A stretch of DNA of 64,000 nucleotides, from IMG/VR virus record IMGVR_UViG_3300011989_000011, positions 12,252-76,251 of that record, one strand, 5' to 3'. The position numbers and the translations under genes were made by a program. Origin of the DNA: a virus (lineage: Duplodnaviria; Caudoviricetes). Shown here in pieces: positions 7,259 through 63,792 of the stretch (within the stretch, counting starts at the first letter, position 1; each line of letters begins with the position of its first letter). The notes beneath the pieces were generated by a model. It did no database searches, was not told the DNA's origin, and worked only from the letters and a program-made list of their open reading frames with translations.

Positions 7259-7362
7259 ACTTTTGATTATCAGCAAATTAAATGCGATTTTGTTTGTTTA
7301 TCTCAGAAAAAATGACTACCTTTACACTGTAATTAAGAAACATATAAACATTAAGAGCAATG
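7255..7362 (+). promoter_or_regulatory. Repeated promoter cassette, copy 1
   Basis: Palindrome 7255-7281; TTTG 7293, 20 nt, TACCTTTA 7317; 36-bp core 7307-7342; TAAGAGCAATG. Confidence 0.85.
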
Positions 7363-8397: not shown

Positions 8398-8409
8398 AAG
8401 TTAAGAGCA

Positions 8410-9069
8410 ATGGATATAGTACAAGAAGAAAGAGCAGATGTAAGAGCCGAAAGCAAAGGCTTCGAGAGTCTTACGACTGTAGAGTTGATTAGTCTCATCT
8501 TAGGTGGCAGTAGCTCCACTCTGATGGATCAGTCACGGCAGATTTTGAAGTTAGTGGATTGTAAGCTACCTAAACTCAGAAACGTCAGTGAGAAAGAACT
8601 AACTGCAATCAATGGTGTGGGTAGTTGCAAGGCAAAGGCACTCCTTGCAGCATTAGAGTTAGGCAAGCGTGTTTCATGTTCCAAGCATGAGACGGATAGC
8701 ATTGATTCATCGTCAGCAGTGTATAACTATCTCCACCCTCGTATGCAATTCTTAGACACGGAGGAGTTTTGGATATTGCTGATGAACAATAGCTTCAAGT
8801 TGCTGAAAGCCGAGCGCATAGGACAGGGCGGTCTGACTGATACCCCTGCTGATATTAGAATCATGATGCGTGAAGCGGTTCTGAATAACGCTACGGTAAT
8901 GGCAGTAGCCCACAATCATCCTTCGGGAACGCTCAGACCGAGCATGCAAGATGATAGGCTCACCAACCATATCAAGAAAGCGTGTGAGATAATGCGTGTA
9001 CATTTCTTGGACCACGTGATAGTAACAGACGGAGGATATTATTCATATAGAGACGAAGACAGACTATGA
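8410..9069 (+). CDS. radC: RadC family JAB/MPN-domain protein
   Basis: HhH GVGSCKA; TEEFWILL; AHNHPSGTLRPSMQD; LDHVIV. Confidence 0.93.
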   Translation: MDIVQEERADVRAESKGFESLTTVELISLILGGSSSTLMDQSRQILKLVDCKLPKLRNVSEKELTAINGVGSCKAKALLAALELGKRVSCSKHETDSIDSSSAVYNYLHPRMQFLDTEEFWILLMNNSFKLLKAERIGQGGLTDTPADIRIMMREAVLNNATVMAVAHNHPSGTLRPSMQDDRLTNHIKKACEIMRVHFLDHVIVTDGGYYSYRDEDRL

Positions 9070-9459: not shown

Positions 9460-9564
9460 TTAATTGGAAATCAAGAAATTAACGAGGTAAATATTTGGTC
9501 AATCCGTAAAAAATGACTACCTTTACAATGTAATTAAGAAACATATTAAACTTTAAGAGCAATG
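9456..9564 (+). promoter_or_regulatory. Repeated promoter cassette, copy 2
   Basis: Palindrome 9456-9482; TTTG 9494; core 9508-9543; TAAGAGCAATG 9554. Confidence 0.85.
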
Positions 9565-10298: not shown

Positions 10299-10340
10299 AA
10301 GGTAACGGAGGGCTAACCACCCTCCCTAAAGATAAGAGCA

Positions 10341-11186
10341 ATGGAAAAGATAGATTTAGCATCAGTCGAGAAGAAGTCATTCGAATTGGCTACTGAGAAG
10401 ATCAGCAAGACGGAGGATATGACTATAGACAAAGCCAAGAGGCACATCGAGATTATGGAGTTATCAATGGGCGATAACGATGCCTACGATGCGGTTGCCA
10501 AGGGTAACATCAGAGCCTACCAGTTATTCATCACCGAGCAAGAGCCAAAGATAGAGCAGCAGAAAGAGGAGGCCCGTAAGAAGCAGCCGGTCTACTACAT
10601 CGCCAATGGTGGTGGCTGCGATTGCTTTGACTACTACGGGTGGGATACAGAGGTCAAAGAGCTTCGTACCGCTTTCGTTGATTGGGATAGCGGTAGAGGT
10701 GCAGAAATGATGCCGGATTGGGATAATAACGACATCTGCAATATGCCTAAGAGTTGCGAGAAAGACTTCAAGGAGTTCTGCGCCAAATATTTCTCAGAGA
10801 AGTACGGAGCCGTTGCAGGCTTCTTCGATGATTATAAAGGTAAGATGAAAGTTCCTTGCAGAGTAACCACTGGCCGTAAGTTCAAAGGAGAAGGCATCCT
10901 CACTCACTTCACTGAGAAGAAGTATAGAGATTATAGCGGTTATCTCCATATCTCCACTACTGCCCACATCGTAGACGACTACGGAGTAGAGCAGACTGCG
11001 GTAGCCACAAGGGTGGAGATTTCCCATGACGTTCAGCAGCGAGTTATCCGTAAGGGCATCATGAATATGTCACTTGCTGATCTGAAGGATTTGTTTTACG
11101 GAATCCTTTGGCACTTCGGGAGATACCAATCTGATACCTATCCCAAGATTATCAAGGCGGCATTCAAGGACTTAAATGAGGAATAA
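10341..11186 (+). CDS. Hypothetical protein
   Basis: 281-aa ORF with TAAGAGCAATG start. Confidence 0.65.
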   Translation: MEKIDLASVEKKSFELATEKISKTEDMTIDKAKRHIEIMELSMGDNDAYDAVAKGNIRAYQLFITEQEPKIEQQKEEARKKQPVYYIANGGGCDCFDYYGWDTEVKELRTAFVDWDSGRGAEMMPDWDNNDICNMPKSCEKDFKEFCAKYFSEKYGAVAGFFDDYKGKMKVPCRVTTGRKFKGEGILTHFTEKKYRDYSGYLHISTTAHIVDDYGVEQTAVATRVEISHDVQQRVIRKGIMNMSLADLKDLFYGILWHFGRYQSDTYPKIIKAAFKDLNEE

Positions 11187-12146: not shown

Positions 12147-12267
12147 CAGATTAAGAAATGGAATCGTAGAAGAATTACCGCCGTGAGGCGTTCATTGCTC
12201 AGAGGAGCAGTTTCTTAATTAGTTTGTGGGAAAAACATTCTGAGACGAAAAATATTTGTTAAAAGTG

Positions 12268-12298
12268 TTTGAGTTTCAAATGTTTTTCCCTATTTTTG
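12268..12298 (+). promoter_or_regulatory. Bacteroidales sigma70-type promoter for portal/MuF
   Basis: TTTG 12268, 19 nt, TATTTTTG 12291 (consensus TAnnTTTG). Confidence 0.75.
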
Positions 12299-18273: not shown

Positions 18274-18314
18274 CTTTGTAATGTAATTAAGAAACAAACA
18301 AAGATTTAAGAGCA

Positions 18315-18533
18315 ATGAAAAAGATAAGTTATGATGATCTGCTGCAGGAAGCACGTATGCACTTCGGCATGGTACCTCAGTCAGTCAAAGACAAGATGCT
18401 GAATGAGGTCGAGAACGTCAACAAAGGTATGTGGGGTAACGACATTGAGTCGATTGTCACCAATCTGTACCTTGAAGCAGACGATACAGACGAGGAGGAA
18501 GTTTGCGAGACACAGAGTTTAATCAGACAGTAA
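18315..18533 (+). CDS. Hypothetical protein
   Basis: Preceded by a partial cassette TAACTTTG-TAATGTAATTAAGAAACA and TAAGAGCAATG. Confidence 0.6.
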   Translation: MKKISYDDLLQEARMHFGMVPQSVKDKMLNEVENVNKGMWGNDIESIVTNLYLEADDTDEEEVCETQSLIRQ

Positions 18534-19883: not shown

Positions 19884-19989
19884 ATTTCTGATTATCAGCA
19901 AAATAATGCGGAAAATGTTTGGTCAATCCGTAAAAAATGACTACCTTTACAATGTAATTAAGAAACACATATAAACATTAAGAGCAATG
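19880..19989 (+). promoter_or_regulatory. Repeated promoter cassette, copy 4
   Basis: Palindrome 19880-19906; TTTG 19918; core 19932-19967; TAAGAGCAATG 19979. Confidence 0.85.
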
Positions 19990-20724: not shown

Positions 20725-20771
20725 GAAACAGACGGGAGGGTTCTGTACCCTCCCCTTTAATACTAAGAGCA

Positions 20772-21119
20772 ATGAAGTTAGTTACATCAGCAATCAAGAA
20801 AGAGCTTGCGAAATATCCACTGGGTTCACAAGATGGCAAGAATGGCGATGCTAAGGCTATAGCACGCTTCTTCTTTCCTATGGGCTCATGGACGTGGTAC
20901 GTTACTGAAGCCAACCTACAGACGGGTGAGGCGTTCGGAGTAACGATAAATGGTTCGGGCGAGGGTGAGTATGGTTACTTCAATCTGAACGAACTGCAAT
21001 CTCTCAGAGTCAGAGGTTTGGGTGTTGAGCGAGACATCTGCTTCACTCCTACCAAGCTGAAAGACATCAAAGACGAGTATCTACAGAAGAAACTTAAAAG
21101 TATGGGTTATGTTGCTTAA
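20772..21119 (+). CDS. DUF2958-family protein
   Basis: YPLGSQDG..ARFFFPMGSWTWYVTEA..GEGEYGYFNLNEL..VERD. Confidence 0.8.
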   Translation: MKLVTSAIKKELAKYPLGSQDGKNGDAKAIARFFFPMGSWTWYVTEANLQTGEAFGVTINGSGEGEYGYFNLNELQSLRVRGLGVERDICFTPTKLKDIKDEYLQKKLKSMGYVA

Positions 21120-30785: not shown

Positions 30786-30815
30786 TTAATTAGGTTAAGA
30801 AAGTTAGTAAAACGT

Positions 30816-30845
30816 TTGTAATTTGAAAGATTTTGATTATCTTTG
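30816..30845 (+). promoter_or_regulatory. Canonical Bacteroidales promoter with no protein-sized ORF downstream
   Basis: TTTG 30816 and TATCTTTG 30838-30845. Confidence 0.7.
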
Positions 30846-30849
30846 CAAC

Positions 30850-30986
30850 GTTTCTTAATTACAAGGCCGATGGCACTCATTGCTCGCCAAGGCTGAGTAA
30901 TTCTCTTTGTGCGTTCGCCCGTGACGGGTAGACGCACATTTTGTTTATGGGTAAAATAAAAGCCCAACCGATTGGTTGAGCCTTTT
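30850..30986 (+). ncRNA. Candidate antisense sRNA (~135 nt)
   Basis: Own promoter; 5' GTTTCTTAATTACA and internal CATTGCTC complement early-gene leaders; hairpin 30908-30938; terminator-like stem 30957-30986. Confidence 0.55.
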
Positions 30987-30987
30987 C

Positions 30988-31464
30988 TTATTGTAGTGCT
31001 TCTGATTTCCTTTGTTCGTAGAGAACCTTTGCAGAATACTTGCCTACGTTCTCGAAGCTATCGTAATACTCCCCATTCTTCTTGAATAGTATGTTGAAGA
31101 AATGCTCCTTATTGTTTGGGAAGGTAAACTCCACTACGGTAGCATTGCAGTTGGCATCATCGGTGCCGAACCCCTCCACCAACACATCAAAGGCATTGAC
31201 GGAGTTGATCGCATCAGTTATCTTTCTCAGTGAAGTGCTTGCCCACGCTATGACATTCTGACTATTGGTGTCAAGCATCGGGTTATACGCTTTGATGTTC
31301 TTTGTCTTCACGATGGTGATGGTCGGGACCTTGCTTCCTCTGTCTATCTGCTGCTGAAAATACACATGGTTAAGATACTCCACAACCTTTGCGTTATCAT
31401 TGCCACACGAGGCGAATAACAACACCACAAGCGAATAAAAAGCGAAAGCCAATAACTTCTTCAT
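30988..31464 (-). CDS. Lipoprotein moron on the opposite strand
   Basis: MKKLLAFAFYSLVVLLFASC lipobox. Confidence 0.75.
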   Translation of the reverse strand: MKKLLAFAFYSLVVLLFASCGNDNAKVVEYLNHVYFQQQIDRGSKVPTITIVKTKNIKAYNPMLDTNSQNVIAWASTSLRKITDAINSVNAFDVLVEGFGTDDANCNATVVEFTFPNNKEHFFNILFKKNGEYYDSFENVGKYSAKVLYEQRKSEALQ

Positions 31465-31550: not shown

Positions 31551-31581
31551 TTTGTTACTCAAACATTTTTAAGTAAATTTG
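31551..31581 (+). promoter_or_regulatory. Promoter of the late head/tail operon
   Basis: TTTG 31551, 19 nt, TAAATTTG 31574. Confidence 0.75.
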
Positions 31582-31589
31582 CGCAAGAA

Positions 31590-31741
31590 AGCGTGTGAAG
31601 ATGCACGCAACAGAACTAATCGTAAACTTCATTGCTCTTAACATGAGAAGTGGTTCTACTCGATGATGGTCTGCTTGCGTCATGTACGCTCGCAGACCAT
31701 TTTATTTATTGTTTTATTAATCTAAAGCTAAGAGTAATGAA
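31590..31741 (+). promoter_or_regulatory. Structured 5' leader able to sequester the scaffold start codon
   Basis: TTCATTGCTCTTA 31628-31640 pairs with TAAGAGTAATGAA 31729-31741; hairpins 31591-31608 and 31666-31700. Confidence 0.6.
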
Positions 31742-32537
31742 CAAGTATCTTACAAAGGTCTTGAATGCTCTGAAACCGAAGGTGAAGGCATACGGGTTCA
31801 GACGTAAGGAGTTAGAGAGTGCCGCCGCTACCATTGCCGACAATCTCGATCTCGCAGATGATGCCTCAGAGGAAGACGTGGCGAGTGCCATTGATGAAGC
31901 TATTGATGCGGCAATCCCATTCTTCAAACTTGCTCAGAAATCAGCCAATCGTTCAATCAAGAAGTTCAAAGACGAGTGGAAGGCCAACCACGAGGATGAG
32001 GACGAGGACGAAGACGATGAGGATGATGAGGATGATGACGATGAGAATGACGAGGACGATGAGCCCGCTCAGAAGCCCAACAGACAGTCTCGCAAATCAT
32101 CCAAGGCGAACAAAAAGAGCAAGAGTTCCAAATCAAACGATGATGGCGATTCAGAACTGAAATCACTGCTGAAGTCTCTCAACGACAAGTTGGATTCCCA
32201 AGCAAGTGAGATTAAGGCATTGAAAGCAGGTAAGACTGCTGACAAACGTCTCGCCAAGATCAGCAAGCTCGTTGAAAACACGGGTAGTTTTGGTAAGCGC
32301 ACCCTCCGTGCATTCAAGAAAATGCAATTTGAAGATGATGATGATTTCCAAGACTATCTCGATGAGGTCAAAGAGGATTTGGATGAGCTGAACCAAGAGC
32401 GTGCAAACGCAGGATTGGAGAAGCTCGGAACACCGCCTGCAGCACCAAAGACCAACAAAAAGGGCGATGGTGATGAAGACGACAAAGAGAACGTCATGAG
32501 TGATGAGGAAATCGAAAAGTTCGCAGAAGACTTCTAA
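31737..32537 (+). CDS. Capsid scaffolding-like protein with a long Asp/Glu tract
   Basis: Start MNKYL at 31737; acidic tract ~31995-32060; lies before the decoration and capsid genes. Confidence 0.7.
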   Translation: MNKYLTKVLNALKPKVKAYGFRRKELESAAATIADNLDLADDASEEDVASAIDEAIDAAIPFFKLAQKSANRSIKKFKDEWKANHEDEDEDEDDEDDEDDDDENDEDDEPAQKPNRQSRKSSKANKKSKSSKSNDDGDSELKSLLKSLNDKLDSQASEIKALKAGKTADKRLAKISKLVENTGSFGKRTLRAFKKMQFEDDDDFQDYLDEVKEDLDELNQERANAGLEKLGTPPAAPKTNKKGDGDEDDKENVMSDEEIEKFAEDF

Positions 32538-62534: not shown

Positions 62535-62567
62535 ATCGGCATTGGCTGTGAAGTCAGTGCCGATTTT
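62535..62567 (+). terminator. Hairpin terminator between the convergent lysis and integrase genes
   Basis: ATCGGCATTGGC-TGTGAA-GTCAGTGCCGAT followed by TTT. Confidence 0.6.
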
Positions 62568-63792
62568 CTATATAGTCGATAACCTTTCTGTTGGCTTCAT
62601 CCACCTTCTTCATGTCGAATTTGATATAGGTGTCAGTAACTGAATACCCTCCATGCCCTAATGCAGCAGCGATTGTCTCTTTTGGGATATCCAACTCAGC
62701 AGCCGTTGTTGCCCATGAATGTCTTGCCCAATATAGAGATATGTTAGGAAACAAGCCGATACGTTTGGTTATCAGTTTATGCTTCTTGCTATTTGGTTTC
62801 CACTTCGGGTTAGGAATCATCTGAACGGGCCCGATACGTTTCAGTTGTCGGTCAATCTTCATCGTTAGGCTCTTGTAAGACGAAAATCCCTCCCCAAAGG
62901 ATAGGAGTAAGTCTTTTCCTCTGTACTTATCTATGAGTTCCAATGCTTCGGGTTCAACCTTGATATCATACAAGCGGCCAGTCTTGGCACGGTTGTACAT
63001 GATCCGTCCGTTTTGAATCTCAGTTAGAGCGCATAGGTCAACGAGGTTGATACCTATCAGATAGAAGGTAAGTTTGAAGATATCCACATACCTTTGCTGC
63101 CATTTCTCGCAAGGATAGGAGAAAAGGGTTCTAATGTCTTCGACTGACATAGAACGCTTCGGTGTCGCTTCGGGTCTGATTTTGAACTGCCGGAAAGGGT
63201 AGAACTGAGTGATATTGTTGTCGATGGCATCATTAAAGACAGCACGAATATTTCTGAAATGAATGTTGCGCCCGTTTACGGAATGGTTGTACTTGGTAAG
63301 GAACAACTCGAAATCAGTCAGCCAATCCTTTGTAATGTCTTCGAACTTCAATAGATTTGCGTTTGGCGCAAACTCCTTTATCCGTTTCAGCGTTATAGCA
63401 TACTTCTCGACAGTGCTTGACGCTTTGAGTCTTTTCATATACTCATCATACCTATAAAGAAAGAGAGATTTATCTATATGAACGGGAGAAAGCATATCAG
63501 ATATACGATTCTTTATCTGAGTAGCGTTCATTAGTGCGAGATCGCCTTTTTCGGTAAGCTCCATAAGGATGTTGTCAAACTGACTTTTGCGAGTTTGGAT
63601 AAAGTTGTTAAGTTTGGCTTTGTTAGGATTGTCCTTCACACGCTCCTTCACAGAATCCCATTGCGAGGGTTGCAGTTTCAGTCCAATAGGATATTGCGCT
63701 GACTTGCCATGCTTCGTGATGGTTATCTTCAACGGACACTCACCTTTGGCGTTCTTTGAGCGAGTATCTAAGTAAAGTTTCGTAGTTGTCAT
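62554..63792 (-). CDS. int: Tyrosine integrase with arm-binding and SAM-like domains
   Basis: YNRAKTG, YWARHSWAT, ALGH, TDTYI; N-terminal KLYLDTR. Confidence 0.95.
   Translation of the reverse strand: MTTTKLYLDTRSKNAKGECPLKITITKHGKSAQYPIGLKLQPSQWDSVKERVKDNPNKAKLNNFIQTRKSQFDNILMELTEKGDLALMNATQIKNRISDMLSPVHIDKSLFLYRYDEYMKRLKASSTVEKYAITLKRIKEFAPNANLLKFEDITKDWLTDFELFLTKYNHSVNGRNIHFRNIRAVFNDAIDNNITQFYPFRQFKIRPEATPKRSMSVEDIRTLFSYPCEKWQQRYVDIFKLTFYLIGINLVDLCALTEIQNGRIMYNRAKTGRLYDIKVEPEALELIDKYRGKDLLLSFGEGFSSYKSLTMKIDRQLKRIGPVQMIPNPKWKPNSKKHKLITKRIGLFPNISLYWARHSWATTAAELDIPKETIAAALGHGGYSVTDTYIKFDMKKVDEANRKVIDYIENRH

Follow-up and report, generated by a model that had tools for sequence, protein, structure and literature searches.

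A putative attenuator leader with an anti-start module preceding the head operon in a temperate phage of the Prevotella type

We report that the scaffold-capsid (head) operon in this temperate phage of the Prevotella type appears to be preceded by a control element without earlier description, a new, conserved attenuator leader carrying an anti-start module. It lies in a 64,000-nt stretch of DNA, here called the window, namely bases 12252-76251 of a virus record 76,251 bp long and, by the CheckV estimate, 98% complete. In the reading that we prefer, and to which we give about an even chance, RNA polymerase would start near 31589, transcribe a 5' hairpin (P1) and a central domain, and then run into a strong intrinsic terminator located 25 nt upstream of the first head gene; the head genes would be made only when this terminator is read through. 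In the read-through RNA, an anti-start element is predicted to form 13 bp with the scaffold start and would restrain translation initiation, providing a second gate in cis. Pairing in trans with mRNAs of the replication arm would also be possible, a role likelier to belong to a stand-alone small RNA. The leader matches no Rfam family, C4 included, at either the gathering threshold or E <= 10; its region of the window has no match in the GenBank phage collection, and our literature search turned up nothing on these motifs and nothing on how Bacteroidota phages control their late genes.

Architecture and conservation of the head-operon leader

Almost all genes of the phage are carried by the + strand. 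A tyrosine integrase gene (62554-63792, minus strand; Pfam Arm-DNA-bind_5 and Phage_int_SAM_5) adjoins a tRNA-like end, which indicates a temperate phage. Relatives of the element are found in prophages of Prevotella vespertina A2879, Prevotella sp. KH2C16 and an uncultured Prevotella MAG; the prophages of the two cultured strains (host contigs G005:C17, 174-213 kb, and G006:C11) correspond to IMG/VR proviruses L057 and L088. The first head gene belongs to a protein family with no assigned function and is called scaffold-like here for its position in front of a 438-aa capsid-like gene; its N-terminus and ATG are kept in relatives. Between the portal-like gene and the head operon lie a bidirectional terminator (30955-30985) and a 158-aa minus-strand gene (30988-31464) encoding a lipoprotein-like product, with a signal peptide and Cys, and together these two look like a moron. 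Outside the window, at genome 2062-2616 (locus L170), the phage also encodes a 184-aa protein, possibly a phage ECF-type sigma factor, that has a Sigma70_r4_2 domain (26.4 bits).

The features of the leader and of the gene start behind it are as follows.

31551-31581, + strand: Bacteroidota-type promoter of the head operon, TTTG-N19-TAAATTTG (consensus match)
31591-31608, + strand: P1, hairpin at the 5' end of the leader, 6-bp stem including one U-G pair, GAAGNN loop, then AAC (predicted folds)
31612-31617, + strand: AGAACU, 5' strand of helix P2 (RNAalifold consensus)
31619-31622, + strand: AUCG, 5' strand of helix P2' (minimum-energy fold)
31628-31640, + strand: anti-start element UUCAUUGCUCUUA, antisense to a translation initiation region (TIR) (exact complement of the early motif)
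31652-31657, + strand: GGUUCU, 3' strand of P2 (RNAalifold consensus)
31661-31664, + strand: CGAU, 3' strand of P2' (minimum-energy fold)
31666-31712, + strand: intrinsic terminator, stem-loop 31666-31700 and U-rich tract (-21.8 kcal/mol)
31729-31741, + strand: scaffold-like gene start, TAAGAGTAATGAA, with which the anti-start element can pair in cis (ATG at 31737)
31737-32537, + strand: first head-operon gene, 266 aa with an acidic run (PHROG 5824)

We searched for promoters with the Bacteroidota consensus TTTG-N19-TAnnTTTG. The pattern TTTG-N17-21-TANNTTTG has eight matches in the window where 1.07 are expected, including 31551-31581 and 30815-30845. Because the upstream neighbour of the promoter at 31551-31581 is the convergent minus-strand gene behind the bidirectional terminator, this promoter must feed the head operon; no second promoter of the consensus type was found between 31581 and the ATG at 31737, and head-operon transcription probably starts near 31588-31590. 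All relatives have a promoter of the same type 9-10 nt from P1. The segment 31551-31712 thus reads most plausibly as a promoter followed by a structured leader of ~120 nt, made up of P1, the central domain and the intrinsic terminator. The -33 TTTG of the promoters at 31551-31563 and 12268-12280 sits in a TTTG-N5-CAAA palindrome that recurs in the relatives' leader promoters; as a signal this palindrome was discarded, being unenriched in the window (3 versus 1.5).

To describe conservation we used an alignment of 22 distinct leader sequences from Prevotella phages and prophages, gathered from the list of P1 matches and a metagenome scan. The order promoter, P1, central domain, terminator and ATG is kept in all 22, down to 58% capsid identity, the most distant leaders accompanying the capsid homologues of L002 and L003 (58-59%). 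On the given structure 96.6% of alignment cells pair, as against 27-44% when partners are slid, and double changes occur at three pairs, a count that none of 500 shuffles reaches; because the leader sequences are so alike, the covariation support is modest. All six pairs of P1 are invariant and P2 is 97.7% paired. P2', a short competing helix, occurs as GUCG/CGAC, UUCG/CGAA or AUCG/CGAU, three Watson-Crick types at one position, and as G-U variants; the consensus order is P1, P2 (AGAACU/AGUUCU), terminator.

P1 also has a life outside this leader. Its 21-nt pattern (31591-31611) turns up on 91 IMG/VR contigs, each time in a structural-gene region; the contexts number at least four and are unrelated to one another. 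Class A comprises 13 entries of this P1-derived list, the window and a 99% twin included, that have the full leader before a scaffold-like gene; the remaining contigs carry P1 without the rest of the leader. There it lies between terminase-like and portal-like genes (class B), downstream of small ORFs and upstream of a terminator (class C) or in front of a 543-aa gene (class D). Class B loci have a second hairpin after P1, before the portal-like gene, and the sole match of a class B region in the GenBank phage collection was an unannotated fecal phage. Some factor may act on P1. A terminator-based pattern searched in IMG/VR returned, beyond the known leaders, only unrelated coding matches.

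The first-pass annotation had described 31666-31700 as a 9-bp hairpin looped out by the masking helix. The hairpin is there, but it is an intrinsic terminator, which the annotation did not state, with a stem of 10 bp plus an inner 4 bp, finishing 25 nt upstream of the scaffold ATG and found with its T-run in 22/22 relatives. Since what is looped out is a conserved intrinsic terminator, the first level of control would be transcription attenuation, and most transcripts may never reach the start codon. Across the 13 class A entries, which were found through P1, the terminator's 5' arm shows no change, whereas G-U changes occur in its variable 3' arm. AGAACU (31612-31617) together with the 3' arm of P1 can alternatively pair with the terminator's 5' arm in predicted folds: transcripts truncated at 31680-31686 are predicted to form an antiterminator-like helix, 31604-31616 with 31668-31680, the strands of which are invariant and hence carry no covariation signal. 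An invariant 5' arm, a variable 3' arm and an alternative partner make up a pattern typical of a switch. No antiterminator gene was identified; the phage record gave no NusG-like gene, only the ECF-type sigma domain.

Masking of the scaffold start in cis

Prevotella and Bacteroides hosts start translation without a Shine-Dalgarno interaction, which makes the accessibility of the start region decisive. As the first-pass annotation had seen, TTCATTGCTCTTA at 31628-31640, when reverse-complemented, differs from the scaffold start region (31729-31741) at a single position, and this difference yields a G-U pair within a 13-bp helix. The helix belongs to the minimum-energy fold of the read-through RNA 31589-31760 (-51.3 kcal/mol, z = -4.0; ViennaRNA), where the scaffold AUG is predicted to be paired with a probability of 1.00, and the terminated RNA has as its minimum-energy state the local CUUCA..GAAG fold that the annotation had offered as the alternative. 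Opening the scaffold start is predicted to cost 9.5 kcal/mol, as compared with 1.2-3.5 for four early starts in their own leaders, and this cost falls to 3.6 kcal/mol when the central domain is shuffled.

The relatives are less uniform. Pairing between AUG and loop has a probability of 0.84-1.0 in 11/15 of them and of 0.27-0.75 in the seed variants L003, L035, L059, L134 and L137, while opening the start is predicted to cost between 1.1 and 10.4 kcal/mol, the background being 2-5. The full 13-bp helix is specific to the window's lineage, most relatives retaining 7-9 bp, and none of them compensates in the loop for changes at position -3 of the scaffold start. Masking is thus predicted to be strong in the window's phage and is not uniformly conserved, with no covariation backing. 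The proposal of a leader that masks its own start codon therefore stands in part: the leader is promoter-driven, antisense to its own start and thermodynamically predicted to mask it, but it does so in a lineage-specific way and unevenly among relatives.

An early start motif and RNAs antisense to it

The 11-nt core of the anti-start element is the exact complement of TAAGAGCAATG, a motif found at the starts of early genes, as had been noted before. The window holds eight exact + strand copies of this motif, every one of them at, and ending in, an ATG start codon.

292-302, + strand: early start motif of a 327-aa gene
7352-7362, + strand: early start motif of the first gene of a promoter cassette
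8402-8412, + strand: early start motif of a 219-aa DNA-repair-like gene
9554-9564, + strand: early start motif of the first gene of a promoter cassette
10333-10343, + strand: early start motif of a 281-aa gene
18307-18317, + strand: early start motif of the first gene of a promoter cassette
19979-19989, + strand: early start motif of the first gene of a promoter cassette
20764-20774, + strand: early start motif of a 115-aa gene, with the top predicted leader-loop duplex (-24.1 kcal/mol)

With one mismatch allowed, the motif has 12 matches where 1.67 are expected, and none of 100 shuffles reaches 12. Genome-wide, AGAGCAATG stands at 13 ATGs, all within genome 567-33023, the replication arm. The genes bearing the motif include those of a Sak4-like ATPase and a helicase and the first genes of the repeated promoter cassettes; PHROG and Pfam assigned no function to most of them. 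The cassette promoters end in TACCTTTAC, not in TAnnTTTG. Fuller related records contain 10-13 coding-strand copies each. Three host genomes of ~3 Mb hold 14/26, 11/26 and 5/9 of their copies in the prophage, and the motif is rare in the host chromosome; a host-wide start signal was rejected on account of this concentration, and the motif is not complementary to the 16S 3' end examined. Neither the motif nor an antisense copy of it occurs in 764 kb of P1-carrying loci of classes B-D, and it appears from the sequences compared that the two co-occur only in this phage group. By our estimate an 11-mer antisense match within a 150-nt leader is expected ~3e-5 times; given this expectation and the retention of the element in relatives, the match exceeds chance.

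Since the element is perfectly antisense to the start motif of the replication arm, as is the seed of a separate small RNA described below, pairing in trans is possible as well. A tentative alternative to the cis gate, possible though hardly probable, is accordingly that the terminated leader (~115-120 nt) is a trans-acting sRNA that shuts off mRNAs with a AGAGCAAUG start late, its self-pairing being incidental. With its own promoter and terminator, the leader is predicted in silico to yield a discrete short RNA, and it matches the eight window starts, and 13 genome-wide, perfectly over 11-14 nt. Predicted loop duplexes with motif-bearing starts range from -15.9 to -24.1 kcal/mol, as compared with mostly -4 to -15 for other genes and one at -18.9. 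Within the central domain the conserved block is UUCAUUGCUC, complementary to GAGCAAUGAA and followed by variable bases, and the loop variants CGUUGCUC and CAUUGUUC still pair through G-U. Among the 19 relatives with a start region, the loop of 18 pairs more favourably with the early consensus (-7.9 to -20.2 kcal/mol) than with the start of their own gene (-5.7 to -16.3). This difference arises because most scaffold starts lack GAG, the loop's conserved CUC being partnerless in most relatives' own start regions, and the better fit of UUCAUUGCUC to the early consensus favours a partner in trans.

The same seed recurs in a sister unit that shares TCATTGCTC, a hairpin and CATTTT with the leader (its 30850-30942 portion), as the first-pass annotation had pointed out.

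30815-30945, + strand: sister unit, sRNA-1, with promoter, ~95-nt RNA and terminator, and CUCAUUGCUC exposed in the apical loop

The predicted fold places CUCAUUGCUC in an 11-nt apical loop, where the seed is unpaired with a probability of 0.74-1.0. Homologues of sRNA-1 occur in nine phages, downstream of the portal-like gene, with CATTGCTC invariant and with the first hairpin and the terminator diverged through compensating changes. In four phages the sRNA matches the start regions of the Sak4-like ATPase and helicase genes over 17-20 nt. The window phage also has a degenerate copy, AAUUCUCUUUG (~30898-30908), at the position homologous to the relatives' seed.

A further complementarity involves the 5' ends. 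GTAATTAAGAAAC follows the -7 box of five cassette promoters (7329, 9530, 18060, 18283 and 19954, + strand) and is also found upstream of the integrase gene (63881, minus strand), and its exact reverse complement follows the sRNA promoter at 30850. The 5' end of the sRNA is thus perfectly complementary over 13 nt to early mRNA 5' ends in the window phage; the L002 phage carries the same single change in both versions (GTAATAAAGAAAC and GTTTCTTTATTAC), a compensating pair, and the complementarity is weak or absent in four other phages. It could reflect RNA-RNA pairing or, equally, a shared DNA operator, and for this reason we did not use it as evidence of pairing. Elsewhere, the 3' UTR after a 78-aa gene (12192-12222) contains TTCATTGCTC and GTTTCTTAATTA with 9 nt between them, which together amount to a nearly full early mRNA leader in antisense, comprising both the 5' end and the start motif; on the minus strand this copy opens merely a 6-codon frame.

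What tells against a trans role of the leader itself is that its seed is half buried in the terminated RNA (unpaired probability 0.07-0.9, as against the open loop of the sister) and that common clades carry mutations in it: the pairing is broken by CAGUGCUC, found in a widely sampled clade and mismatched at the A of AUG, by CAUUGAUU and by the deletion of one base, and the clades with CAGUGCUC and CAUUGAUU retain the sister sRNA. Moreover, a cross-matrix of seed flanks and start regions gave no genome-specific co-evolution, correspondence being seen only at the level of the group. From these predicted accessibilities and alignments, the stand-alone sRNA is probably the better candidate for a trans-regulator, and the leader loop seems a weaker copy, redundant in part.

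A broader idea, about which we are rather doubtful, joins the two RNAs into a phage-wide regulon in which the group-specific start motif AGAGCAAUG marks the replication-arm genes and is read by two RNAs with the same seed, the stand-alone sRNA and the head-operon leader. If this were true, translation of replication genes and expression of head genes would be coupled through competition for one seed, and the phage would combine an RNA counterpart of T4 RegA, a lambda-like late attenuator and a widespread factor-recruiting 5' hairpin.

The leader could also be an attenuator and nothing else, with the anti-start sequence a structural element or the relic of an inverted start cassette, devoid of any pairing function. 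CAUUG does pair locally with a downstream CAAUG or CGGUG in many relatives, seed variants are tolerated, and the inverted whole early leader at 12192-12222 shows that such inversions happen. An inverted-cassette relic is a possible origin, but it leaves the retention of the seed unexplained: homology to the early cassette is limited to 14 nt, the seed persists in divergent leaders as well as, independently, in the sister sRNA with fully diverged flanks, and it strictly co-occurs with the start motif. We therefore hold an attenuator without pairing function to be unlikely.

The titration switch suggested by the first-pass annotation is less probable still. Abundant early mRNAs would bind the anti-start element and unmask the scaffold start, coupling heads to prior early expression. 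It would fit the single G-U of the cis helix, where the trans duplex with early starts is fully Watson-Crick, the retention of the U of that G-U in three phages of the window's lineage, and the high cost of opening the scaffold start. The intramolecular helix, however, is strongly favoured by local concentration, many relatives are predicted to mask weakly or not at all, and nothing that we observed requires titration; the notion of early mRNAs releasing capsid translation found no direct support.

Yet more improbable is a nut- or rrn-like antitermination site, with P1 as boxB and UGCUCUUAACA as a boxA binding NusB/NusE. The succession of promoter, hairpin, boxA-like sequence and terminator resembles rrn leaders, and there is a resemblance to E. 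coli rrn boxA and lambda boxA as well. The host rrn leader of Prevotella sp. KH2C16 (L163:1896-2152, minus strand) has the order promoter (TACCTTTG), GC hairpin, boxA-like sequence (AGUUCUUUGAAAG). Yet AGUUCUUUGAAAG is a poor match, the part equivalent to UCUUUA is variable while the conserved UUCAU upstream of it is irrelevant for boxA, and the same seed occurs in a stand-alone sRNA with nothing downstream to antiterminate. Finally, we dismiss a small minus-strand gene (ATG at 31632, 25 codons) of which the antisense motif would be the start: the minus strand does read TAAGAGCAATG and then an open frame (ORF 31555-31683), but its ATG is lost in the common variants CAGTG and CGTTG, its peptide is unconserved, conservation tracks the + strand RNA helices, including the U-G pair and the T-run, and a consensus search found no minus-strand promoter.

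Relation to known systems and significance

Read as an attenuator leader with a cis anti-start module, the element recalls several systems without coinciding with any. The lambda late leader comprises the pR' promoter, the 6S RNA, the tR' terminator and antitermination by Q; here too, a promoter right before late/structural genes yields a short leader with a strong intrinsic terminator and, presumably, read-through dependence. Unlike in lambda, no Q-like gene or Q-binding promoter element was identified in the phage, the promoters are of the Bacteroidota type in keeping with the host, and the leader differs from 6S RNA by its conserved 5' hairpin and anti-start element. Listeria SreA and SreB are terminated riboswitch leaders that act in trans, and a prematurely terminated 5' leader could likewise double as a trans-acting small RNA in the phage, although ours has no evident ligand-binding aptamer and no Rfam match. 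Fold-back inhibition of hok mRNA and the long-range start masking of RNA phages involve a distant segment of the same RNA that pairs with the start region and blocks the ribosome, as predicted here; in our case the mask lies upstream, across a terminator hairpin, and is also antisense to the starts of other genes. T4 RegA is a translational repressor protein recognising a short AUG-containing sequence of many early mRNAs, a scheme of one regulator and one AUG-containing motif that the phage would share, with an RNA as the candidate regulator in place of a protein.

The C4 antisense RNA of the immI operon of phages P1 and P7 controls the expression of Ant and Icd (PMC8201110). Like C4, the leader is a phage RNA upstream of its target and in the same transcription unit, predicted to pair at the target's translation start, and C4-type pairing can act in cis and in trans. 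Unlike C4, the complementary motif is common to 10-13 genes, the RNA ends at a terminator instead of being processed, the target operon is structural and not that of an antirepressor, and the leader does not match the Rfam C4 model.

To our knowledge, almost nothing is known on gene timing in temperate phages of Prevotella and Bacteroides. The locus described here provides a conserved control element of a late operon, made of promoter, hairpin and terminator, together with a group-specific start motif and matching antisense RNAs, and it can be tested in the cultured lysogens Prevotella vespertina A2879 and Prevotella sp. KH2C16. Should the pairing prove functional, it would amount to a compact RNA solution to multi-gene translational control in a phage, and P1 would serve as a marker of late operons in many gut phages.
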